This document shows, in pieces, positions 25,470 to 44,410 of a stretch of 64,000 nt of DNA. The notes under the pieces are model-generated. The model had not been told where the DNA came from. It did not search any database and saw only the letters and a program-made list of their open reading frames with translations. Each line of letters begins with the position of its first letter. The first letter of the stretch is position 1. Position numbers and translations under genes: made by a program. This DNA is from Pristiophorus japonicus (Eukaryota), in contig NC_091983.1 of NCBI RefSeq assembly GCF_044704955.1, forward strand, positions 12,958,001-13,022,000. Reading direction: 5' to 3'.

Positions 25470-26236
25470 GATAGGAACAGGAGGCGGCCATTGAGCCCCT
25501 CGAGCATGTTCCACTATACAATGAGATCATGGCTGCTCTGCGACCTAACTCCATGTACTCGCCTTTGGCCCATATCCCTCAATACCTTTGGTAAACAAAA
25601 ATCTATCAATCTCAAATTTAAGATCAACAATTGATTTATCATCAATTGGCAATTGCAGCAGAGAGTTCCAAACCTCTACCACCCTGTATGTGTAGAAGCG
25701 TTTCCTAATTTCACTCCTGAAAGGTCTGGCTCTAATTTTTTTTTCTAATTCCCCTATTCCATAGACTCCCCAACCAGCAGAAATAGTTTCTCTCTATCTA
25801 TCCTATCTGTTCCCCTTAATATCTTGAAAACTTTGATCAAATCACCCTTAATCTTTTAATCTTAATCTTAATAATTCCGGGGAAAGGAACCTTAATTTGT
25901 GTAATCTCGCCTCGCAATTTAATCCTTAGAGTCTGGTTATCATTCTGGTAAATCTACGCGGCACTCCCTCAAGGTCAATATATCCTTCCTCAGGTGTAGT
26001 GCTCAAAACTGCTCCAGATGTGGTCTAACTAGGGTTTTGTATAGTTGCAGCTCAACTTCTAGTATTCTAGTTCTCTAGATATAAAGCCAGCATTCCATTA
26101 GCCTTTTTGATTATTTTCTGTACATGTTTGACATTTTAATATTCTATGTACCTGGACCTCCAAGCCTTATTTGGACCACCACTGATTTTAACTTTTCACT
26201 ATTTAGAAAGTACCCTGTTCTATCCTTTTTAGGTCC
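25470..26236 (-). mobile_element. older CR1 LINE 3' fragment flanking the provirus 5' LTR
   Basis: CR1 tail at ~25470 and degenerate RT C-terminal sequence running up to the TSD. Confidence 0.7.
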
Positions 26237-26711
26237 TGCAAGATTGATTATCAAAGATGTTATCTGGCTATTATGAAGGCCCTGAGCTCGCTAAACAAAA
26301 AGGTATGCTTAAAACTATACATACGCATAGAGCCACAAGATGACCACTCGTTGAAGGTATGCTTAAAATTGCACGTACACAAGATGACCACTCATTGACC
26401 TCGGGCTCAAGGGAGCAATATAACACTATAAGGCGAGTGACACTGGGAAGAAGGGAACACATGGGTATTTGATCATGCGTTGGTACAGCCAATCACATCA
26501 CTGTTAAGATCTGTCCACGAGGACACCCATGTGCTAAACCCTGTATAATTAAAGTGCAATTTGAACAGCTCGTTGGAGATCCTCTCTCAGGCGGCTGAGA
26601 AGTGAGATGCTCCCCCTTCGCGTGTTGGAATTAAAGTCATTGAAACTTATCCAAGGTATCAGTCTGTTGAATCCGGGCTTGTTGAGAGGAGAAGGGCGAT
26701 TCTCCCCATCA
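26237..26711 (+). mobile_element. 5' LTR of the ERV (475 bp)
   Basis: TGCAAG...CCCCATCA. CCAAT at ~26489, TATAA at ~26544, ATTAAA at ~26630. An internal duplication in U3 is absent from the 3' LTR. Confidence 0.93.
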
Positions 26712-26713
26712 AC

Positions 26714-26731
26714 TGGCGTAGTCGACAGGAT
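26714..26731 (+). promoter_or_regulatory. primer binding site, tRNA-Ser
   Basis: TGGCGTAGTCGACAGGAT, 2 nt after the LTR. It matches the complement of the vertebrate tRNA-Ser 3' end (TGGCGTAGTCGGCAGGAT, as recalled) at 17/18. Confidence 0.85.
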
Positions 26732-26753
26732 ACAGACTCGCTGACCTGAAACG

Positions 26754-26770
26754 ATGTGGCAGCTGTTGGG
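26754..26770 (+). CDS. env: env leader exon (MWQLL-G) upstream of gag, followed by the major splice donor
   Basis: ATG TGG CAG CTG TTG GG|GTGAGT. Splicing to 35752 yields the signal peptide MWQLLGTLVLVGGILG. Confidence 0.7.
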
Positions 26771-27013
26771 GTGAGTACTTTTTAAATACAAGTTAGAGCT
26801 GTTACACTGTTTATGGGAAAGGAGGAAATCTGTAGAAAGAACAAAAACGAGCCACGGAGAGGACGGAGATCAAGGAATAAGGACGACTTGGGGTATATGA
26901 TCGTCTCTAACGCGGTCAACCGGGGCGCTAATGAACAAGTATCGTCCAGGAGATGCGATGGAGGTACAAGAGTAGCCCACTAAGGGAAAGGTAGCCTCTT
27001 AGCGATCTTAGAA

Positions 27014-28605
27014 ATGGCCGGCGAATATAATTGGGGCCCCCGAGGGATCTATAGCGAAAATACTAGCAGATAAAACATGAAACTAATTGAGGGAATGAAG
27101 AAAAAGGGATGGCAACCAGACGACCCACCGGAGAAGCAGGCAAAGTGGTGGGAGTGCCAGCTGAGAAATAAAGGGGACCGGGCTCATATGGTAGTATTAG
27201 CCTGCTATCGGGAACAAAATAAAGAGATGGAAAGAAAGGATCAGATAATACAGGAATTAAAAGCTAAAATAAAAAAGATGGAAGTGGCGGAAGCAAGGAA
27301 TGGTACAACATGTGCAGCAGTAACTGGGCGACCTACAGCACCACCTACACTGGTACCAATATATCCCCCACTGGAACTTTTAAGTGAAGAAATCCAGAAT
27401 AGTGGGGGACCAGAGTGGGATGAGTTGGCTAATGAGGCTCGCAAATATACTCCAGACTATGACGATTGGGGAAGAGAAGGTGGGCCTCCCCCATACGAGA
27501 AGGTATGGGCAGCCCCGATCAAGGTACAATCTGTAACCGGCCACCCAACTACACCGGCTGCCGGAGGCAACCCGGGAGCCCCCACAATACCTGCCATGGC
27601 ACCTCGGATAAAAACTACCGATGTGTCACTGACACCCGGGGACACATTGAAGTTATTACAAATGTTACCCAAGTTAGAGAGGAGACGAAGTACTTAAGAG
27701 TTTTGGCAGAAAATACGGGAAATAAGAATCTACCACAGCCTTCACAACCGAGATGTGGAAGCGTTAGTAAGAGCAAAAATGACTGAAGAAATGCGGCAAC
27801 AGTTGGGACAACGATAAAGGGACGGCACTTGGTGTGCGATGATAGCCCCCACTGTTGCGCAGTCGGGGGCAGATTATTAGGCGTTTAAAGCAGACATAAC
27901 TCGGGTAGCAGGAGCAATACCCATAAACTGGGGAATAATCATGGGGGTCACTCAAAACAAGGGGGAATCCGCACATGACTATGCAGAGTGGAAATGATTG
28001 AGCTTCCAAACGTATTTGGGAAATATTGAACTCCACCAGGGATAATCAAGCATTCCTAAAAATATACAAAGACGGCTTGAGTACTGCACACCAAGACTTA
28101 TTAAAAGCAGGGCTAGTTACAATGAAAAACTATGACGTCTTGTCCAGATGGGCATCTGAGTTGGATGTTACTCAGAAAAGGAAAGTAGCTGTGGTAGAAG
28201 CGCACGTGGCCGCAGTGGCGAAAGGAACGAGTGAGGAAGGAAAACTATGCGCAGCCCCCTTGACTTGTTTTAATTGTGGAAAAGGCCACTTTAGTAGAGT
28301 GCCAGCAGAAAAAAGGGGCTCAAGGGAGGGATGGACAATCAAGGCCGAAGTGCCAGAACTGCGACAAACTAGGCCATACAGCGAGGAAATGCTGGGTTAA
28401 GGGGGGGGGGGGGGGGCGGGGGGAGGGGCAGAAGGACAGGGACCCGGACAGATTAGGAGTCCCAGGAGGAGAATCAACCCTGACCAGGGGAGAAGTGGTA
28501 GCGCTCCTTAAAGCAGCTCAGCGGCTTCCGTGGCCATTCCCCCCGCAAGAGAGGCTTTCTAACGAGGACATCATAAGTATGCTACGGTTGGCAGCCACTC
28601 AATAG
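27014..28605 (+). pseudogene. gag: ERV gag (frameshifted)
   Basis: PTAP (27332), YPPL (27362) and PPPY (27485). Zinc knuckles CFNCGK.GH (~28265) and CQNCDKLGHTARKC (~28351). Ends at TAG 28603-28605. Confidence 0.85.
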
Positions 28606-29685
28606 CGGTTACCGGCCCCCAGTGAAAATGTGGGACCACAAAGAGAGGATCCAAGAATGTTTATTGGCGCAGTGTTAGGGGGCCGGTAGTGCGAGATTCT
28701 GATAGACACGGGCGTGTCAATATCTATAACTAATCTAGACTTACCCCTTACCAAGGAAACGATCAGCATACAAGGAGTGGGAGGAGGTAACAGAAAGGCA
28801 ACTTTAAGTGAAATTGTACTATTGGAAGTGTTATATATGCAGACTATAGATATACTCTGTGTAGTCACTGTATAGTTGCATAAGATGGAGACTTGTTACC
28901 TGATGTACTATCAAATAAGGTTTACACTGTGTATATACTATGCTGGCACCACTAGAGGGTGCAACTTGTGGAAACCAGGGTTTCCTGCTTCTGTGGCAGA
29001 GGCTGCCCACCAAAGGGCACTGCGGTGGGAGACCTGAGGGTCACCTGCATAAGTGTGCAGGGGCCCAGTATAAAAGGCTGCCCATCATGCTTGTGCCTCA
29101 CTTTGGAGTTACGAATAAAGGACCAAGGTCACTACACTTTGAGTACAACACATTGCCTCGTGGAGACATTCATAAGTGCATTACAGACATAACAGGAAGT
29201 ACAAGGGATAGCACTACCCACCCAGTTTTGGTGCTGCCCCAATCCCAAAGGCACTATATTAGGAATAGAAACATTAAGGGAAATAGGGGTATTAATAGAC
29301 CCCCAGCGTAACCGAGTAGTCTGGGGAGAAGCAGCACGAAACTCAGTGTAAATTTAACCACCTGGGCCATCAGCAGCAGCAGGTGGCTGGGATCCGTCCA
29401 ATAGATCCCGAGTGAGAAAGAAAGGGTGCCTGAGGAAGTATGTGTCAGTGATACCCTGCCTTATGGGCCCAACACAAACAGGACTGTGGGTTGGTAGGGC
29501 CCAAGTCAGTCAAGATCCCAGGTCCAGAACACAAAGCCCACCTGCAATACCCACTGAAGCCAGACGCTGAAGCAACTGTCCTTCAGATAGTGAAAGAATT
29601 GGAAAGCAAGGGGTGGTGAGACAAACAATAGCTATGACTGACCAGTATGGCCAGTAAAGAAACCAGATGCCTCATATTGGCTGAC
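28606..29685 (+). pseudogene. pol: ERV protease and RT N-terminus (interrupted by a solo LTR)
   Basis: ILIDTGVSISIT (DTG at 28705) and IQGVGG. After removing the LTR the frame continues EVQGIALPTQFW..GTILGIETL. RT start reads LWAQHKQDCG..QYPL..PVWPVKKPD. Confidence 0.85.
28829..29194 (+). mobile_element. Gypsy-type solo LTR inserted in the ERV protease
   Basis: TGTTAT...ATAACA inverted termini, TSD GGAAG (28824-28828 and 29195-29199), TATAAAA and AATAAA present. Confidence 0.9.
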
Positions 29686-32600
29686 TGGGAGCAATCCTGT
29701 GCTATGTGGGAAATTGGGTATGTGTGCAGGAAGTGTATCCAGCTGCAGCTCTTGACAGACTGCATTGCAGCACTGGAGCTGCGCATGGATTCACTCTGGA
29801 GCATCCGCAATGCTGAGGATGTCACGAATAGCATGTTTAGTGAGTAGGTAAAGGTTACACAGGCAGATAGGGAATGGGTGATCATCGGGAAGAGCAGTGG
29901 AAGGAAGATAGTGCAGGGGGCCCCTGCGGTAATCTCCCTCCAAAACAGATATACCACCTTGGGTCCTGTTGGGGAAGATGGCTCATCAGGGGAGGGTAGC
30001 AGCAGCCAAGTTCATGGCACCAGGGGTGGCTCTGCTGTGCAGGAGGGCAGTGGACGAGCTATTGTGGTTGGGGCATTCTATTGTAAGGGGAATAGAGGGG
30101 CGTTTCTGCAGCCGCAAACAAGACTCCAGGATGGTATGTTGCCTCTCTGGTGCAAGGGTCAAGGATGTCTCGGAGCGGCTGCAGGACATTCTGGAGGGGG
30201 AGGGTGAACAGCCAGTTGTGGTGGTGCATATAGGTACCAACAATATAGGTAAAAAGCAGGATAAGGTCCTACAAACTGAATTTAGGGAGCAAGGAGTTAA
30301 ATTAAAAGGTAGGACCTCAAAAAGGTAGTAATCTCAGGATTGCTACCAGTGCCACGTGCCAGTCAGAGTAGAAATAGTAGGATAGTTAGGAATGAATACA
30401 TGGCTTGAGAAATGGTGCAAAAGGGAGGGATTCAAATTCCTGGGACATTGGAACCGTTTCTGAGAGGTGGGACCAGTACAAACTGGACGGTCTGCACCTG
30501 GGCAGAACTGGAACCGGTGTCCTAGGAGGAGTGTTTGCTAGTGTTGTTGGGGAGGATTTAAACTAATAGGGCAGGGGGACAGAGGGAAGAAAAAATGGGG
30601 TCAGAAGCTAAAGGTATAAAGGAGAAAAGTAGAAGTGGAGGGCAGAAAAATCAAAGACAAAAATCAAAAAAGGCCACATTACAACATAATTCCAGAAGGA
30701 CAAAGAGTGTTAAAAAGCAAGCCTGAAGGCTCCGAGTCTTAATGCGAGGAGCATTCGTAATAAGGTGGATGAAGGCGTTAACGGATATGATGTAATTGGG
30801 ATTACGGAGACATGGCTCCAGGGTGACCAAGGCTGGGAACTCAACATCCAAGGGCATTCAATATTCAGGAAAGATAAGACTGAAAGGAAAAGGGGTAGCG
30901 TTGCTGGTTAAAGAGGAGATTAACACCATAGTAAGGAAGTACATTAGCGTGGATGAGGTGGAATCTGTATGGGTACAGCTGCGGAACACCAAAGGGCAGA
31001 AAACGCTAGGGAGTTGTGTACAGACCACCAAACAATCATAGTGAGGTTGGGGATGGCATCAAATAAGAAATTAGGGATCTGTGCAATAAAGGTGCCGCAG
31101 TTATCATGGGTGACTTTAATCTACATATAGATTGGGCTAAACAAACTGGTAGCAATACGGTGGAGGAGGATTTCCTGGAGTGTATAAGGGATGGTTTTCT
31201 AGACCAATATGTCGAGGAACCAACTAGAGAGCTGGCCATCCTAGACTGGGTGTTGTGTAATGAGAGGATTAATTAACAATCTTGTTATGCGAGGCCCCTT
31301 GGGGAAGAGTGACCATAATATGGTAGAATTCTTCATTAAGATGGAGAGTGACAGTCAATTCAGAGACTAGAGTCCTGAACTTAAAGGAGGGTAACTTTGA
31401 AGGTATGAGGCTTAAATTAGCTAGGATTGAGCGGCAAATGATACTTAAGGGGTTGACTGTAGATGGGCAATGGCAGACATTTAGAGACCGCATGGATGAA
31501 CTACAACAATTGTACATTCCTGTCTGTCGTAAAAATAAAAAAGGGAAGGTGGATCAACCGTGGCTATCAAGGGAAATCAGGGATAGTATTAAAGCCAAGG
31601 AAGTGGCATACAAATTGGCCAGAAATAGCAGTGAACCTGGGGACTGGGAGAAATTTAGAACTCAGCAGAGGACAAAGGGTTTGATTAGGGCAGGGAAAAT
31701 TGAGTACGAGAAGAAGCTTGCAGGGAACATTAAGACGGATTGCAAAAGTTTCTATAGATATATAAAGAGAAAAAGGTTAGTAAAGACAAACTTAGGTCCC
31801 CTGCAGTCAGAATCAGGGGAAGTCATAACGGGGAACAAAGAAATGGCGGACCAATTGAACAAGTACTTTGGTTCGGTATTCACTAAGGAGGACACTAACA
31901 ACCTTCTGGATATAAGAGGGGTCAGAGGGTCTAGTAAGGAGGAACTGAGGGAAATCCTTATTAGTCGGGAAATTGTGTTGGGGAAATTAATGGGATTGAA
32001 GGCCGATAAATCCCCAGGGCCTGATGGACTGCATCCCAGAGTACTTAAGGAGGTGGCCTTGGAAATAGCGGATGCATTGACAGTCATTTTCCAACATTCC
32101 ATTGACTCTGGATCAGTTCCTATCGAGTGGAGGGTAGCCAATGTAACCCCACTTTTAAAAAAAGGAGGGAGAGAAAACAGGGAATTATAGACCGGTAAGC
32201 CTGACATCGGTAGTGGGTAAGATGATGGAATCAATTATTAAGGATGTCATAGCAGCGCATTTGGAAAGAGGTGACATGATAGGTCCAAGTCAACATGGAT
32301 TTGTGAAAGGGAAATCATGCTTGACAAATCTTCTAGAATTTTTTGAGGATGTTTCCAGTAGAGTGGACAAGGGAGAACCAGTTGATGTGGTATATTTGGA
32401 CTTTCAGAAGGCTTTCAACAAGGTCCTACACAGAAGATTAATGTGCAAAGTTAAAGCACATGAGATTGGGGTTAGTGTGCTGACATGGATTGAGAACTGG
32501 TTGTCAGACAGGAAGCAAAGAGTAGGAGTGAATGGGTACTTTTCAGAATGGCAGGCGGTGACTAGTGGGGTACCGCAAGGTTCTGTGCTGGGGCCCCAGC

Positions 32601-33578
32601 TGTTTACACTGTACATTAATGATTTAGACGAGGGGATTAAATATAGTATCTCCAAATTTGCGGATGACACTAAGTTAGGTGGCAGTGTGAGCTGCGAGGA
32701 GAATGCTATGAGGCTGCAGAGCGACTTGGATATGTTAGGTGAGTGGGCAAATGCATGAAGTATAATGTGGATAAATGTGAGGTTATCCACTTTGGTGGTA
32801 AAAACAGAGAGACAGACTATTATCTGAATGGTGACAGATTAGGAAAAGGGGAGGTGCAACGAGACCTGGGTGTCATGGTACATCAGTCATTGAAGGTTGG
32901 CATGCAGGTACAGCAGGCAGTTAAGAAAGCAAATGGCATGTTGGCCTTCATAGCGAGGGGATTTGAGTATAGGGGCAGGGAGGTGTTGCTACAGTTGTAC
33001 AGGGCCTTGGTGAGGCCACACCTGGAGTATTGTGTACAGTTTTGGTCTCCTAACTTGAGGAAGGACATTCTTGCTATTGAGGGAGTGCAGCGAAGGTTCA
33101 CCAGACTGATTCCCGGGATGGCGGGACTGACCTATCAAGAAAGACTGGATCAACTGGGCTTGTATTCACTGGAGTTCAGAAGAATGAGAGGGGACCTTAT
33201 AGAAACGTTTAAAATTCTGATGGGTTTAGACAGGTTAGATGCAGGAAGAATGTTCCCAATGTTGGGGAAGTCCAGATCCAGGGGTCACAGTCTAAGGATA
33301 AGGGGTAAGCCATTTAGGACCGAGATGAGGAGGAACTTCTTCACCCAGAGTGGTGAACCTGTGGAATTCTCTACCACAGAACGTTGTTGAGGCCAATTCA
33401 CTAAATATATTCAAAAAAGAGTTAGATGTAGTCCTTATTACTAAGGGAATCAAGGGGTATGGTGAGAAAGCAGGAATGGGGCACTGAAGTTGCATGTTCA
33501 GCCATGAACTCATTGAATGGCGGTGCAGGCTAGAAGGGCCGAATGGCCTACTCCTGCACCTATTTTCTATGTTTCTAT
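29686..33578 (+). mobile_element. near full-length CR1 LINE (ORF1 zinc-finger/SGNH esterase, ORF2 EN+RT), degenerate, nested in the ERV pol
   Basis: ORF1: CAMWE..YVCRKC, CLSGARVKDV, VHIGTNNI and DGLHL. ORF2: LNARSI, ITETWL, GDFN, SDHN, QGSVLGP and FADD. Tail TTCTATGTTTCTAT. Confidence 0.92.
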
Positions 33579-33636
33579 ATATATATATATAAAAAAAATA
33601 CACACACACACACACACACGTGTGTGTGTGTCTATA
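33575..33636. repeat. compound microsatellite (TA)n-A-run-(CA)n-(TG)n
   Basis: Read directly from the sequence. Confidence 0.85.
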
Positions 33637-34627
33637 TAGGCAATGGCAGACATTTAAAGATCACATGGATGAACTTCAACAATTGTACATCCCTGTCTGG
33701 AGTAAAAATAAAACAGGGTAGGTGGCTCAACTGTGGCTTCCAAGGGAAATTAGGGATAGTGTTAAATCCAAGGATGAGGCATATAAAGTGGCCAAAAAAG
33801 CAGCAAACCTGAGGACTGGGAGAAATGTAGAATTCATCAGAGGAGGACAAAAGGTTTAATTATGAAGGGGAAAATAGAATATGAGTGTAAGCTTGCAGGG
33901 AACATAAAAACTGACTGCAAAAGCTTTATAGATATGTGAAGAGAAAAAAGATTAGTGAAGACAAATGTGGGTCCCTTACAGTCAGAATGAGGCAAATTTA
34001 TAATGGGGAACAAAGAAATGGCAGACCAAATGAACAAATACTTTGGTTCGGTCTTCACTAAGGAAGACACAAATAATCTACCGGAAATACTAGGGGACCG
34101 AGGGTCTTAGCGAGAAGGAGGAACTAAAGGAAATCCTTATTAATCGGCAAATTGTGTTAGGAAAATTGATGGGATTGAAGGCCGATAAATCCCCAGGGCC
34201 CGACAGTCTGCATCCCAGAGTACTTAAGGAAGTGGCGTTAGAAATAGTGGATGCATTGGTGGTAATTTTCTAACATTCTATAGACTCTAGATCAGTTCAT
34301 ATGGATTGGAGGGTAGCTAATATAACTCCACTTTTTAAAGAAAGGAGAGAGAAAACATGGAATTATAGACCGGTCAGCCTGACATCGGTGGTGGGAAAAT
34401 GTTGGAATCAATTATTAAAGATGTAATAGCAGCACATTTGGAAAGCAGTGACAGGATCGGTCCAAGTCAGCCTGGATTTTTGAAAGGGAAATCATGCTTG
34501 ACAAATCTTCTAGAATTTTTTTAGGACGTAACTAGTAGAGTGGACAAGGGGGAGCCAGTGGATGTGGTGTATTTAGACTTTCAAAAGGCTTTTGACAAGG
34601 TCCCACACAAGAGATTAGTGTGCAAAT
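33637..34627 (+). mobile_element. internal CR1 ORF2 fragment (no 3' tail) fused to the ERV integrase region
   Basis: Runs from GQWQTF to [17 protein letters not shown], then switches abruptly to retroviral sequence. Confidence 0.88.
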
Positions 34628-35703
34628 GGTGGGACAGGGAGCTAAACAAGGCGTGGACAGAATCTGGAGGAAAGATTGTAATGTGGTAGCCCCAGAGTGC
34701 ATATGACAAAGCCTACTGAGTATATACCACGGGTATGCGCATACAGGTAAGACCAGCATGACGAGTTCAATATCCCAATGCCAGTGGTGGAAGGGAATGG
34801 GAAGAGATACAAATAATTATTGTAGGAAGTGCTTAACATGTGCAAAGCATAACCCAGGTGGAAAAAGAAAAGGTCAGAATGGGACACCAACCCTGACCAA
34901 AAGGACCATGGGAAAATCTGCAGATAAGACTTCACGGGCCCACTGCCCAATCACCAGGGAAAAACATGTTGTTTGGTTATAATAGATCAATTCACAAAAT
35001 GGGTAGAAGCTTTCGCAACTAGAAATTGCTCAGCTGAGACGGTGACTCGAATATTAGAAGAAATTATACCTCGGTGGGGAATGCCCCTACAGATAGATTC
35101 AGATCAGGGTACACACTTCACGGGTAAAGTAATGAAACAAGCATGCGCCCTTACTGGGAATCAGGCAGAAATTCCATATCCCCCATCATCCGGATTAGTA
35201 GAACGACGAATAGGACCCTGAAGAACGCACTGGCTAAGGTGATCGACGAGACATGAAAGGGATGGGTAGATATGCTGCCCCAGATTTTAATGAAGTTAAG
35301 GGCGACCCCAAACCGGACCACCAGACTCTCACCTTTCAAGCTAATGACAGGAAGGGCAATGAGATTACCTGAGGTTCTAGTGACGGGGAGTGATGATGTC
35401 AGACCCTACTGGGACCGAGTAAGGAGATTTGTGATGGAATTATGTAAACAATTACATGATCTGAAGGCACACGCCAGGGATCAGCAAGTGATCAAGGACT
35501 TGGAAACTGGCACCAAGGAACAAAAGGCTCAGATACCACAGGTTGGGAGCAAGGTAATGATAAAAATAATCCTCGAAAAGCCAGGATTTTCACCAAAATG
35601 GACAGGCCCTCACCAGGTAATAATGGTAAGCGACACGTGCGCGTGCGTGGCGATAGGTGGAACCGGACGGTGAAAACATTGGACACAGTTGAGTGCAACA
35701 TGA
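34628..35703 (+). pseudogene. pol: ERV integrase (HHCC zinc finger, DDE core, GPY/F-like C-terminus), frameshifted
   Basis: YHGYAHTG...CRKCLTC; IIDQFTKWVEAF; IDSDQGTHFT; SSGLVER; LRATPNRTTRLSPF; PKWTGPHQV. Confidence 0.9.
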
Positions 35704-35751
35704 GACCCTAACTAACCAGTGACGACCGGGAAAACATGTTGTGTTTTACAG

Positions 35752-37930
35752 AACCTTAGTCCTAGTAGGAGGAATACTGGGTAACCCCATCTTATACCAC
35801 GACCCAGCAGTAAGTTGCCCAGACGGCTATCAAGGAAATATTTCCACTACAAACTCAATCTTTTGCAGAAAATGCCAAAGGAACAAAAGGCTCAGATACC
35901 ACATGTTGGGAGCAAGGTAATGGTAAAAATAAACCTCAAAAAGCCAGGATTCTCACCAAAATGGACAGGCCCTCACGAGGTAATAATGGTAAGCGACACG
36001 TGCGCGTGCATGGCGATAGGTGGAACCGGACGGTGGAAACGACTTGAAGTGGAATGGACAAGCCCGGATAAGGGACACTCATGGCAGAACCAATCATAGA
36101 CATGCATGAAAAGCTCGGACCAAGGAAATCCACACAGGTGTGGGGGGGGTAAGATGTAACTTCACCAGAGAGGCAGAGGGGACTACCCCCATAACCATCA
36201 GGGAATCACAATACGGTAACGGTTCCTTATGGGGAATGTTCGTGTGCAAGATAGAGATCCCAACCACCACAATAGCCTCAACCACAACGACCCCAGAACC
36301 CCCAGGATGCCCAAACATGACACAGGGGGCAAGCGGAGGACTAGTAATAAAAAGAACTAAAGACAAAATCCACTTCGGGGTACGCCAAAGGGGTAGTGTT
36401 AAACCTAACGGATATAACTATCCCACTGTTTTGCGTTAAGAAAACTATAAGCTTATATAAAAATCCTAAGAGCCCTTGAGGGGCCTGAATCCAAGACCAT
36501 GAAGTTCAATGTAAAAAAGCCGAACAAAAGCGGGAAAGGCGGGAGTAGAGGGGATTATTGGAAATGGTGGGCGCGGGATATGCGGCGGGCGTTGCGACGG
36601 TTAAAATAATAAATCTTCAAACAATAGAAGAGCAGGTCATCACCCTCACACAGACCTTAAAAGGACTGCTGGAAATGGGAGATGATAACGAGAAAATGCA
36701 GGCCCAGCTAGGGGACGGGCTGGAACGGGAACTGCTACAGGTTGCCCATACATTATTGCAGGACCATGCAAAAACAATAAATTTGGTCAACCAGGCTGGA
36801 CAAACTATGAGTAAAAGAATGGCGGCCGAGATATTGTGTGGGATATGGGGCTTGGATGCTCAATACGGTAGAACATAACCTAGAACAACTCCAGAATGGG
36901 GAGGTGCCGGATTGGATAACCAATGATGTATTTGCTGAAAGGACAGTGGGCAAGAATGACACCCAAACCTGTGAGGTCCAGAGGATTAGCCATGCCTGGG
37001 TCCCTAAGAACAGGTGTGTAACTGGACATCAGAATATAATAGGGTTTGTGTTATCAATACCACAATACGACATGACAAAGGGAAACACATTGTACCAAGT
37101 AAGCAATATAGGAGAAATAAGGAATCAGAACCGTGTGCGATATCACAAATTGCACCAGTACGTAATTAAAAAGGGAAACAATACCAAAGGTGTCTATATT
37201 AAAGATTGTTATAAGAATAATCAAGTTGTTTTATGCCAAGAGCACCCAGACCTCGATAACAACGACTGTGGATATGGCCAAACAGAAGGATGTGCATTGA
37301 GTGTCACAACGCTGACACTGGACTCCGAAACGACCGCAGCCTCACAAGGAAAGGGAGGATGGTGTGTGAGCATCATGGCGGTCAATATGACGGTGGGGGG
37401 AGTTACCCACTGTCCTATCATGACCACCGACTTCTGTTTTGTGCCAAAAGAAGTCGTCGATATTGAGATATATCATATATCCGGAATTGAAAGGAGAATC
37501 CGTCAATGGGACTGCGGTGGACACTATCAAGGTATAAAGATTTCGAGGAACCACAAGGACGACATATACCCAGACTTAGTGAAGAACAAACTAAGTTGGA
37601 ACAGGACATCCATGAACAACGGCAGAAGTACATCATCCTGAAGATGGACAACTCCAGAAGGACACTAAAGAAATGTTGTCAAACCAACCCTGGTATGCGA
37701 GACTTTGGAACTTTGGACTAAACGTGCAGGTGTACCCCTGGATAAAAATAATATCCCATGTATTGGTGATTGTGCAATGTGTGATTTTAATGGTATTGTT
37801 GATTGAATTATGGTGATGTAGTAAACGACGGGCGAGGAAAGGCATAGCTCAGGCCCCCATAAAAGCCTTAGAAGAAACTAAACCTTTATTATCTGAGGAA
37901 AAATCTGTAAAACAGGTAAATGGTGTGTAA
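35752..37930 (+). pseudogene. env: ERV env, F-protein-like class I fusion glycoprotein (degenerate)
   Basis: Branch point CTAACTAAC (35708) and acceptor TTTTACAG (35751). Basic cleavage site RERRE*R then GLLEMVGAGYAAGVATV (36552). Heptad-like segment, Cys-rich region, W-rich segment PWYARLWNFG, TM IISHVLVIVQCVILMVLLI (~37750-37805), and tail EETKPLL ending TAA 37930. Confidence 0.8.
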
Positions 37931-38074
37931 AGGGAAAGAGATACGAGAAGCCATCCGAAAGTAAGGGCTTGGCCACCCACTCGGACGGATTAAGCTGACA
38001 ATATCACTTCCCCTTTGGATGAAATAACGAGGGGACGGCACATTGGCCTATCTTGGGTTATATAGCCAAGGGCC

Positions 38075-38085
38075 AAAAGGGGGGA
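38075..38085 (+). promoter_or_regulatory. polypurine tract of the ERV
   Basis: AAAAGGGGGGA, 1 nt before the 3' LTR. Confidence 0.85.
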
Positions 38086-38086
38086 T

Positions 38087-38483
38087 TGCAAGAACAAGAT
38101 TGATCATCAAAGATGTTATCTGGCTATTATGGAGGCCCTGAGCTGGCTAAACAAAAGATATGCTTAAAACTGCACATACACAAGTTGATCTCGGGCTCAA
38201 GGGAGCAATATAACACGAGCAACACTTGGAAGAAGGGAACAAATGGGTATTTGATCATGTGTTGGTACAACCAATCACGTCACTGTTAAGGTCTGTCCAC
38301 GAGGACACCCATGTGCTAAACCCTGTATAAAATTGAACAGCTCGTTGGAGATCCTCTCTCAGGCTGCTGAGAAGTGAGATGCTCCCCCTTCACGTGTTGG
38401 AATTAAAGTCATTGAAACTTATCCAAGGTATCAGTCTGTTGAATCCAGGCTTGTTGAGAGGAGAAGGGCGATTCTCCCAATCA
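38087..38483 (+). mobile_element. 3' LTR of the ERV (397 bp)
   Basis: Colinear with the 5' LTR, with about 10 substitutions in the last ~255 aligned bp by hand count, plus indels. Confidence 0.93.
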
Positions 38484-39989
38484 GGTCCACTTCCAAAATA
38501 ACAAAGCACTATTTTCATTCATTTGTTTCAATTTACTTCAGTTATCTCTCTGGTCATAAAATGATTCATAGTGCAGCCTGAAATATATGGTGAGTCAGTG
38601 TGGTGTTGACCTGTCTATCATGGAATGCAGTAATAAGCTTCCTGTGCTGTTTCTAGAAACATGGGAACAGCAGTGGGCCATTCAGCCCTTAAAATCTGTT
38701 CCGCCATTTACTTAGATCATGGCTAATTTGTACCTCAACTCCATTTACCCACTATAAACCAGTAGATTGTTAGTGGAGACGTGCTACATATATATATAAA
38801 AAATAAATTTCGATTCATAACCACCACAACCAGCTTCCTATGGGAGCTGCCTTTGGCCGTGAGCACAAGGGTGGAAGACTGTCAAATTGTTGCATACTAA
38901 ATCCATAAGTGGATGGTCACAGTCTCACTGAATCCACATCAATACGCTAATTGAGCAAACAGCTATGAGAAAGTACAAAGCTTTCATTATGCACCAGTCG
39001 TTCAATTCAAGAGCAAGAAAACATTTCTATAATCAGCACATCCAAAGGAAACAAACATGGTCAGTAGCTCAGCTCTTTCAAATCATCAGATCTGATAAAG
39101 AACCCAGCAACCTGTACCTGCTTATCCAGTGAGCCACAAGTTGACATCCAATTGCCAGAACCAATTAGACAAATACATAAGTAAATAAAACAATTAAAAA
39201 TCAGAGATTTGAAAAAATCTTTTACACTGGGGAATCGTTACAACCTGGAATTCTCGGCCACGTTGTCCGTAAACACATTTAAAAGGGAATTTGTTGTTTG
39301 ATAAAGGACGTGGTGAGTATTGTGGGATTAGACTAGGTGGCTCATGGAGAGTAACATCAGTGCAGACTTATAAAGGGTTGAGTCACCTATTTCTGTGCTG
39401 CAACATTCCATGATTCTGAAACTCATAATATGCACACCACATTTTTTAGTTCTTACTGAAAAATATTTACTTCCCCAGGATTTATAAAAAATAATTAATT
39501 TCACCCAATTTTCCAGCTTTTAAAAAAAAGTGTTCCATTATTCTCTGAACAAACCTTTAAAACAAGAAACTCTGGATTTGCATTTAAATGCTGCTGGCAC
39601 CTCAAAAACAATCTCTGTCTGTCCTGCCTTCTGATCAGCCAAACAGCAATATACACTACACCGAGAATGAACACTGAACTTTTGCACAAAACTTTTCTTA
39701 ACTCTGCATCTGCATTACATTTTTCCCCCTCCACTTTACACTGAACATTGATTATTCCCCCAGTTTTCACCACTCTGAACAATCTATAATAAACCACGCA
39801 AAAGTCCCAGCACTTGTTTCCCAACCATAAACACCCCACTGTAGCATCGGTCAAAAGATTATGGGGCACAACTGGGAATTTTATTTTGGCAATTCAATGA
39901 TAAAGGAATTGTTTTAGGGCGAATTCACACTGTGACTGGCATTAGTGCAAAACAGTCTTCCACAAACCCTTCAGTTGTATACGCACTCT

Positions 39990-41615: not shown

Positions 41616-43814
41616 TTACACAAACGAATTGGTGCTTTCTGGATTGACGCGAATGATCCGGGATCCATTGCGGAGATCCTGGAGTTGTTTGGCCGGCGTT
41701 CCAACTCCTTCCTCGAACCGTCTCTCCACCACGGGGAGGACAGTCTCGTACAGGAAGGAAACGTTCTCGCGAATGAAGACTTTCTTCTCCGGGTCCTGCT
41801 CGCAGCGCAGGCTGTAGTCGACGTGCTGCACGGCCACCAGGATGATCTCGCGGAGGCTCTCCAGAAGGACCATGTGCAGTTCGGGGAAGTAGAGCTTCAG
41901 CCCTTCCTCCAAGAAGGCCATCAGCTGCTTGGTGAAGGCCACGATGGTGTAGCTGAGGTTGACCCAGCAGTCGTCGCCCGTGTACTGATCAAAATTCGTG
42001 ATGCCGCTGCCCTTCATCTCCTCCTTCAGCTTCGCCAAGGCCTCGGGCGTCATCAGGTTCATCTTCCTCCACATCTCCTCGGAGTTGCGGTGCTTGGTGG
42101 CCTCCACGATGATGCCCTTGTAGCTGTGGAGGGCGGCCTTGATGTCCTTGACCAGCAGGGCCTGGAGGGTGAAGGTGAGGTCCAGGCCGATCTCACTGAG
42201 CTTGCTGCAGTGCTCCTTGGCCACCTCCACGCACTCGGCTGTGGTGGACAGGCTCTCCTTGCTGTCGAACACCTGCTTGCTGAAGGCGTCGACGAAGAGG
42301 CGGGTGGCCGAGCGCGACCACACCACGAAGGCCGAGTAGCAGCCGCTGTCACCGGCGAAGTCCATCTCGAACTCCCTGGCCGTGTCCAGCAGGCCGGTGA
42401 AGAAGATGTTACAGAGCTTGTGGATGTAGAGCAAGGTGGCGCCCTCGATGCGCAGCTGGCGGATGGCTGTCTGCACGGCGGCCGCGCGGTTCTTCAGGAA
42501 GAGCTCGCAGGCCTTGGTCGACTGGCCGAGGCGGATGAGCTGCGAGACGGCGCGCCGGGTGGCCCGCGGGCCGCCGCGCAGCGAGCGGCCGGGCGACAGC
42601 TCGTAGACCAGCACGTCGGTGAGCCGGCGGACCCGCTGCTCCACCCGGCCGCGCAGCTGGCGCACCCCGGGCTGGCCGGCCGCCCCGCGCAGGTAGTCGG
42701 ACAGCTTGTCCAGCAGGTCGACCGCCCCTTCGAAGTCACGCTGGGCGATGCAGACGTCCAGGTCCTCGGGCAGCTCTTGGATCCACTCCAGGCTCAGGTC
42801 CACCAGCTCCAGGGCCGGGGGCTCCTCCTGCTCGTCGAACGGGTTGGCCTTGGACGACAGAGACGGCGGCGGCCGCGACTTCTTCGTCTTCTCCTCCTCC
42901 TCGGCCGCCAGCAGCAGCAGCAGGGCCTCGGCCTTCTCCACCTCCAGGCGCTCGGTCAGCGCCTTGGTCTTCTTGGTCTGGTCCAGGATCTCCAGCCACT
43001 CCTTCTTGACCTTGGCGTTCTCGGCCTGGAAGACCCGCGTGTCGGGGAACATGAGCACCTTGAACATGTCGCGCATGGGCCCGTTGTCCTTGACGTTGAC
43101 CACGGCGAAGCTGTCGAGGCGGTAGAGCGCGTCGTAGCGGTAGCGCACGGCGCCGCGGCGGCTGGGCAGCCAGGCGGCCACCAGCAGGCAGTCGTTCATC
43201 AGGAAGGCGTGCACCCGCTGCACCTGCGCCGCCGTCTCGGCGTCGCACTCCAGCAGGTCGCCGTTGTAGACCAGGTAGCGGCCGGGCGCCTGCAGCAGGT
43301 CCTGGCAGCCCTCCACTTTCTCCAGCAGGGTGGTGAGGGTGCGCTGCTTGTGCTCCTCGGCCTCCCGCGGCAGCAGCAGGAACGCCTCGGAGGAGGAGGA
43401 GGAGGTGGTGGTGGCGGTGGTGGTGCTGCCGCCGCCGCCGCCGGACGAGGAGGTCCCCTGCTGCAGCTGGCGGGAGCCCTGCTGCTGGAGCTGCTCCCGG
43501 TCGGCCGTCAGCAGCAGCTGGGTCAGGCCGTCCATGATGCCCTTCTGCTCGGTGAGGATGTGGCTGAGCTGGTACATCTCGCTCTCCAGGTAGCTGATCT
43601 CCCGCGCCGTCTCGATGAACTGCCGGTAGTTCTTGTAGACGTTCTTCTTCAGGTTCTGCGCCGTCTCGTCGGCCAGGCTCTGGATCTTGTGCCGGTGCTC
43701 CTGCAGGTCGCGGTCGCCGTCCGACTGCTGCGACAGCTGCTTGACGTACAGGCCCGGCTCGAAGCGCGGCGCCTCCAGCTGGCGCCGGAGCTTGGAGGCC
43801 CCGTCCGCCGCCAT
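41616..43814 (-). CDS. EXOC8: exocyst complex component 8 (Exo84), single exon, 732 aa
   Basis: LRRQLE..F....YVKQLSQQSDGDRDLQEHR, PH-like region GRYLVYNGDL, WIQELPEDLDVCIAQRDFEGAVDLL, and C-terminus RVNPESTNSFV. ATG at 43814. Intronless and head-to-head with SPRTN as in mammals. Confidence 0.98.
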   Translation of the reverse strand: MAADGASKLRRQLEAPRFEPGLYVKQLSQQSDGDRDLQEHRHKIQSLADETAQNLKKNVYKNYRQFIETAREISYLESEMYQLSHILTEQKGIMDGLTQLLLTADREQLQQQGSRQLQQGTSSSGGGGGSTTTATTTSSSSSEAFLLLPREAEEHKQRTLTTLLEKVEGCQDLLQAPGRYLVYNGDLLECDAETAAQVQRVHAFLMNDCLLVAAWLPSRRGAVRYRYDALYRLDSFAVVNVKDNGPMRDMFKVLMFPDTRVFQAENAKVKKEWLEILDQTKKTKALTERLEVEKAEALLLLLAAEEEEKTKKSRPPPSLSSKANPFDEQEEPPALELVDLSLEWIQELPEDLDVCIAQRDFEGAVDLLDKLSDYLRGAAGQPGVRQLRGRVEQRVRRLTDVLVYELSPGRSLRGGPRATRRAVSQLIRLGQSTKACELFLKNRAAAVQTAIRQLRIEGATLLYIHKLCNIFFTGLLDTAREFEMDFAGDSGCYSAFVVWSRSATRLFVDAFSKQVFDSKESLSTTAECVEVAKEHCSKLSEIGLDLTFTLQALLVKDIKAALHSYKGIIVEATKHRNSEEMWRKMNLMTPEALAKLKEEMKGSGITNFDQYTGDDCWVNLSYTIVAFTKQLMAFLEEGLKLYFPELHMVLLESLREIILVAVQHVDYSLRCEQDPEKKVFIRENVSFLYETVLPVVERRFEEGVGTPAKQLQDLRNGSRIIRVNPESTNSFV

Positions 43815-44410
43815 CACTAGCGCACGGGAAAGGGGGGCGGGTGGGTAGGTGAGGGTGAGACTCGAGTTAGGCCGCAGCCAGAGCTGGGCCTTGCTGCTGC
43901 TGCCGCCACTCGAGTTTCAAAGCGCGTCCAGGCCCAACCGTCCGTCACCCGCCCGCTCGCGCCGCCAACTGACAGCCGCTCGCGCGCCGCCCTGTTCTGC
44001 CCCGCGGCTTCCGATTGGCCAGCCAGCGGTGATTTCCAGCCCGCCCATTGGTCGGATCGTTTCTCCCCCCCCCCCACCCCACCACCACCCCCGGCTCTCC
44101 AACAGCTTCTGATTGGTCCGCTTGACGATATTTTTTGCAGCCCGAACCCATTGGTCGGATCGTTTCCCTGACCCTCTTCGGTAACTTCCGATTGGCCGGT
44201 GGACGATCTTCTCCAGTCCGTTTATTGGTCGGATTAGTTCCCCTTGCCCCCCCCCCCTTCCCTCCCATGGCTTCCGATTGGCCGGTCGGCGACGCTTTCC
44301 AGCCCCGCCCATTGGTTCACCCTTCCATCATGTGACCTGCGGCGGGGCGGGGACAAGGCAGTGAGGCGAACTGCGCATGCCCGTTGACAGTTGAAGCTGG
44401 GAGCCGGAGG
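43815..44410. promoter_or_regulatory. bidirectional CpG-island promoter EXOC8/SPRTN
   Basis: Eight ATTGG (reverse CCAAT) at 44014, 44047, 44112, 44150, 44191, 44224, 44277 and 44311. GC box at 44341-44352, NRF1-like TGCGCATGC at 44372, CHR-like TTTCAAA at 43915. Confidence 0.85.

Follow-up and report, generated by a model that had tools for sequence, protein, structure and literature searches.

A predicted env start codon and signal peptide divided between two exons in endogenous retroviruses of the shark Pristiophorus japonicus

A family of endogenous retroviruses in Pristiophorus japonicus (family A) carries a short AUG-bearing leader upstream of gag and an env exon that has no ATG of its own. 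We consider it highly probable that Env was made from a spliced RNA that unites leader and env exon. This splice is a prediction, and we infer both the use of the leader AUG and the cleavage of the signal peptide. In the ancestral element the leader would have been spliced in frame onto the env exon, with start codon and signal peptide built from two exons and the N-terminus, hydrophobic by its hydropathy values, possibly removed as a signal peptide. An in-phase AUG leader with its donor upstream of gag, together with an ATG-less env exon, was found in three lineages: family A, a second family of the same genome (family B), and a distant element on a metagenome contig (L277). A split env start had been proposed in an initial annotation of the window, that is, the whole stretch of 64,000 nucleotides analysed, and the proposal is now supported by the copies of family A, by family B, by L277, and by control families that have an env ATG of their own.

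The window copy and its predicted splice signals

The window contains a decayed provirus with gag, pol, and env all broken (26237-38483), and the copy itself is dead. Its two LTRs with a target-site duplication, primer site, polypurine tract, and gene order gag-pro-RT-RH-IN-env, together with a retroviral RT, place it in the Retroviridae (Table 1). Compared with solved structures, the RT gave its best match to a retroviral RT (E 5e-49), with MMLV and foamy-type enzymes at 1e-34 to 1e-47 and Ty3 weaker at 1e-27. The primer site had been assigned to tRNA-Ser, and it does match the 3' end of the host genome's own tRNA-Ser(AGA) genes. Family A primer sites come in two variants that differ at two central bases, and this sequence difference suggests priming by two tRNA-Ser alleles. 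Elsewhere in the window, a host gene of EXOC8/Exo84 type, present as one open frame (41616-43916, minus strand), ends about 3 kb from the 3' LTR, and an extended tandem array whose periods are about 8 and 24 bases runs from about 8120 onward, near N stretches.

Table 1 Features of the provirus in the window (positions of the window, forward strand)
Feature	Position	Strand	Remarks
Target-site duplication GGTCC, 5 bases	left 26232..26236; right 38484-38488		
5' LTR	26237..26711	+	upstream AUG at 26607 (27/30 copies); polyA-type signal near 26630
Primer binding site	26714..26731	+	complement of tRNA-Ser(AGA); 1 mismatch in window copy
Predicted env leader	26754..26770	+	ATG, then 4 codons (W, Q, L, L) and 2 bases; phase 2
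Splice donor GTGAGT	26771..26776	+	TGA within donor closes leader frame after 6 codons on unspliced RNA
gag and beginning of pro	27014..28829	+	likely start 27014 (ATG in 29/30 copies); stops and frameshifts
365-base insertion, later event	28830..29194		other copies lack an insertion at that place
pro / RT beginning	29195..29686	+	broken
4.95-kb high-copy insertion, later, LINE type	29687..34632	+	carries own RT domain; replaces ~1.7 kb of pol; presumably CR1
RNase H end and integrase	34633..35703	+	broken; pol-frame stops 35673, 35701
Branch-point-like motif, pyrimidine tract, acceptor AG	35708..35751	+	motif CTAACTAAC at 35708; AG at 35750-51; env-frame stop at 35720
Env exon without own ATG	35752..38074	+	hydrophobic run first; predicted F-type fusion protein; broken in window copy
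Integrase-tail duplication inside env, 158 bases	35882..36039	+	window copy only
Polypurine tract	38075..38084	+	
3' LTR	38087..38483	+	20 differences from 5' LTR in 391 aligned columns (K2P 0.053)

The positions first given for the ATG, its 17 coding bases, the GTGAGT behind the primer site, and the acceptor were all confirmed. The leader ATG lies 22 bases past the primer site, and the env frame resumes one base past the acceptor, entering a hydrophobic run at once. A branch point had also been proposed upstream of the acceptor, and a branch-point-like motif is indeed present there, though the A at 35714 occurs in only 2 of 30 copies; the other copies still fit the motif. The claim that the env exon has no in-frame ATG holds as well: a stop closes the env frame 10 codons before the acceptor is reached, and no Met lies between the two. 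Since this stop lies past the pol stop and in another frame, neither an ATG of its own nor a fusion to pol can start env. In the window copy the env frame runs for only 55 codons, because the integrase-tail duplication interrupts it.

The intron had been described as 9 kb long, a length that turned out to be a property of this copy. The window intron measures 8,981 bases, but both the 365-base and the 4.95-kb insertion are part of it, and about 1.7 kb of pol is missing. Among other family A copies, introns could be measured in 12 of 14 and range from 3,677 to 8,694 bases, and the three that are free of insertions and deletions measure 5,407, 5,410, and 5,446 bases. Judging from these copies, the intron has a native length of about 5.4 kb and was stretched to 9 kb in the window by insertions acquired later. 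In two sequence runs of unrecorded type, the 15 joints listed, with 78 others outside the list, do not include one from leader to env, a result that counts neither for nor against the splice.

On unspliced RNA, the donor would supply a stop codon and the leader would encode a peptide of six codons. The initial annotation described this reading frame correctly, as a uORF closed by the TGA inside the donor. The stop, however, needs no separate explanation, because any phase-2 donor of the form GG|GTRA gives Gly and then a stop, as it does in families A and B and in L277. Nor is the leader AUG the only one upstream of gag. An AUG in the R region precedes it in 27 of 30 family A copies and in most family B copies, its frame closing before the leader, and several partly shared AUGs lie between the donor and gag. 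The leader AUG would thus be the second on the predicted RNA, and its use would need leaky scanning or reinitiation. Tuning of Gag translation by the leader uORF, as first proposed, could occur but is hypothetical. As for gag itself, it appears to start with Met-Ala about 240 bases past the donor in family A and with Met-Gly, which we take to be a myristoylation-type motif, about 510 bases past the donor in family B.

Conservation in family A and comparison with related elements

Conservation of the ATG, donor, and acceptor in other copies had been named as a check on the split start, and we carried it out on two sets of family A copies. For the leader, 588 candidates were collected, 40 scored, and 30 taken, the window copy included; for the acceptor, 40 of 217 candidates were scored and 30 taken. 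The leader ATG is present in 29/30 and the donor GT in 30/30, with a coding exon of 17 bases in 28/30 and a leader open in phase 2 in 26/30. The acceptor AG is found in 29/30. Upstream of it, all 30 copies have an in-frame stop at a distance of 9-14 codons, and a Met within that interval occurs in only one. These counts speak for inheritance, that is, for the ancestral state, rather than for selection, because the copies were picked by their likeness to a leader-bearing query, some may be assembly or segmental duplicates, and the leader columns are conserved no better than their neighbours.

In a naturally open family A env frame the first Met is residue 67, and the sequence behind it lacks a hydrophobic run (its best mean over 10 residues is 0.40). 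The best hydrophobic window at the N-terminus scores 2.24 with or without the leader, so in family A the leader contributes mainly the start. Genome-wide, the leader pattern occurs 567 times (overlapping starts counted twice) versus 0 for the reversed pattern; this contrast, together with recurrence of the pattern in related families, argues that it is more than a chance match.

An HMMER search gave 29 Env relatives, of which 10 were looked up; the nearest of these ten are labelled shark, ray, and, in one case, amphibian, labels that point to a cartilaginous fish as host. From the Env relatives we reached four further groups in the same genome (families B, C, and D and group E). Family B is about 73% identical to family A in the RT and has a different LTR end and primer site; a Ser primer site is common to families A, B, and C. 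The env exon of family B has no ATG and the same phase as in family A, and we predicted a phase-2 leader from it before the leader was seen. The leaders then found have an ATG at 17 bases in 30/30 and a GT in 28/30. Acceptors were mapped at 19 of 20 loci, all 19 with AG and all 19 without a Met in the first 30 codons. In 3 of 10 family B stretches, no leader was found within 10 kb.

Families C and D and group E served as controls. Family C (RT 60% identical) is a young family, many of whose copies are near-identical and whose env frames are open over long stretches; in 20/20 its env has its own ATG and a full signal peptide 15 bases past the acceptor. In its leader region, a donor equally far from the primer site is present in 25/25, with a leader ATG in 0/25 and the leader motif absent. 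Similarly, env carries its own Met followed by a hydrophobic run at 16 of 20 family D loci and in the single open frame of group E; a search for the family D donor did not locate one. The acceptor phase varies among these controls (0, 2, 1, 0), whereas it is fixed in the split-leader group.

More distant support comes from L277, whose RT is 42% identical and whose env is homologous (HH probability 92%). Its leader of 41 bases ends, like those of families A and B, in QLLG at a phase-2 donor. Here the leader holds nearly the whole hydrophobic core (hydropathy 1.95 versus 0.55 for the env exon, which has none). This placement of the core is the strongest single sign that the leader is coding, although L277 is one broken copy and has a second, out-of-phase ATG 10 bases upstream.

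An old, small subfamily departs from this pattern. Of its 10 pattern matches 3 were unrelated, and 6 of the 7 members have a stop at leader codon 2; the one member examined for it has the same ATG-less env exon. We infer that this lineage spread without an Env of its own. Three copies were examined for the primer site and have three different ones.

A separate observation concerns a reverse-oriented locus near 30.168 Mb (L137:1186-3543; G000 C18), which holds an env-like frame open for 786 codons with its own ATG and signal peptide. It is 45% identical to the bamboo shark protein P0019, and in the search with that query the matches ranking next are broken. From its sequence, the frame is a candidate for a captured env gene.

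In RT trees of 44 and 15 rows, families A and B are sisters with support of 99-100. Family C falls between A/B and L277 in the 44-row tree, while the 15-row tree does not settle the places of C and L277; in the latter, a single clade of split-type elements is not rejected (p-AU 0.447), and we claim no order of gain or loss for the split start. The trees contain no sequence of the snakehead retrovirus (SnRV), none having been recognised among the matches in the protein index and in four viral-contig scans.

Alternative readings of the leader and the env start

Could the end of the leader be an RNA or DNA signal instead, such as a strong donor context or a palindromic dimerisation or factor-binding site, with the ATG and the phase as passengers and env not translated from the leader? 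The 20 bases around the donor (window 26760-26779; L355:5955-5974) recur unchanged at an adenovirus locus that lies downstream of a TATA box and that we take to be the first late-leader donor; the same scan returned a second, unrelated match, so chance matches do occur. A six-base palindrome within the motif, the stop codons of the small old subfamily, and the upstream AUG in the R region would also fit a non-coding role. Such a role, however, leaves the env of families A and B and of L277 without a start. It also leaves aside that the leader lengths of 17 and 41 bases differ by whole codons while the hydrophobic core moves between the exons, and that family C has the donor but neither the motif nor the ATG. 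Moreover, a role in RNA is compatible with coding, and the leader-end motif may be kept as a splice signal. We therefore regard a purely non-coding leader as improbable.

About as hard to sustain is initiation of Env at a near-cognate GTG 8 bases before the acceptor AG, reached through another acceptor or an internal promoter, with the leader ATG incidental. In both families A and B the hydrophobic run does have a GTG directly ahead of it, in frame with env, and the subfamily with the leader stop retains the same env exon. Yet the GTG belongs to the pyrimidine tract, and that tract is also found ahead of the acceptor in one subgroup of family D, whose env has an ATG of its own. L277 has neither such a codon nor a hydrophobic core in its env exon, and the missing leader ATG of family C would stay unexplained. 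Fusion of Env to Pol by readthrough or frameshift, to which the opening of the env frame only about 20 bases past the pol stop might lend itself, is contradicted by the sequence and scarcely credible, since the pol stop at 35701 precedes the in-frame env stop at 35720 and the two frames are different and do not overlap. Translation of Env from the spliced leader is thus the reading we prefer.

Relation to known retroviruses and insect elements

We suggest tentatively, leaning slightly toward doubt, that a fish retrovirus lineage with an F-type Env has had the split env start from early on and throughout the clade, rather than as the oddity of a single virus. In this view, the QLLG ending at a phase-2 donor that is also a stop survived an RT divergence of 58%, the point of division moves along the signal peptide (5 versus 13 leader codons), and sister lineages turn to a self-contained env start. 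If this is true, many endogenous relatives would share a layout formerly regarded as the peculiarity of a single fish retrovirus. One genome would offer split and unsplit families for direct comparison, and the elements would form a natural series that differs in how the signal peptide is apportioned to the two exons. Env frames of fish ERVs for which no signal peptide was reported, perhaps including the zebrafish env groups of PMC8672886, may then lack the leader exon in their annotation, and annotators should look for a short upstream leader before they describe an env as truncated or signal-less. Our literature search, which covered titles and abstract openings, found no report of the split-leader layout in shark ERVs. 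The split-start strategy itself is already known from the ZAM and Beagle elements, from avian leukosis virus by way of Gag codons and, reportedly, from SnRV; the new part, as far as the sequences indicate, is its spread across divergent fish retroviral lineages.

The fold of Env is predicted to resemble paramyxovirus F. A model from 27 sequences (mean pLDDT 61, the first 129 residues being unreliable) matched RSV and paramyxovirus F in Foldseek with E values of 6e-9 to 1e-7, in contrast to a single-sequence fold, which was useless (pLDDT 37). Sequence searches gave little: in Pfam only a weak Fusion_gly match (E 0.017), with no match for the open env frame and none among the 27 aligned members; no match in a word-index search; only coiled-coil noise when the Env profile was run against PDB sequences; and Atlas leads all under 0.9.

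The closest counterpart in layout is SnRV, for which Hart et al. in 1996 reportedly predicted an Env start and signal peptide upstream of gag and the common donor. The layout was once thought peculiar to this one fish retrovirus, which uses an Arg primer. The families described here share with it the predicted env start upstream of gag and the common donor and a fish host, but differ in having a Ser primer site in families A, B, and C and a leader of five codons only. The accessory ORFs, long Env tail, and single zinc finger of SnRV are likewise absent. The element is about 8.5 kb long with no room for 3' accessory frames, compared with 11.2 kb and accessory ORFs in SnRV (GenBank U26458) according to PMC12193657; it has two zinc knuckles against one (PMC2717909), and an Env tail of about 60 residues against 136.

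Lokiretroviruses, compared here by description only, also have an Env related to the F protein of paramyxoviruses and pneumoviruses, with a furin site, a fusion peptide, and a TM (PMC7947760). According to the same source, their signal peptide lies in Env, they are sister to all other retroviruses, and the hosts named there include no cartilaginous fish. An smc gene is optional in them. An F-like fold is not specific to Lokiretroviruses, because walleye and foamy Env match our model too.

Splice-dependent Env starts of other kinds are found in avian and insect elements. In avian leukosis/sarcoma viruses, the Env signal peptide opens with six codons spliced from the 5' end (PMC8220723); those codons are Gag's own, whereas here a separate leader AUG stands 260 bases before gag. 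In Drosophila gypsy, the Env start likewise depends on splicing, but the AUG is formed at the junction (AT + G), as stated in PMC2585583. The insect errantiviruses of the ZAM and Beagle subclades have the same env layout as the one described here, and the junctions of active lineages were mapped experimentally (bioRxiv 10.1101/2023.08.03.551782), so that the initial annotation overstated the rarity of the strategy. ZAM and Beagle, however, are fly Metaviridae rather than Retroviridae, and the likeness in layout is presumably convergent.
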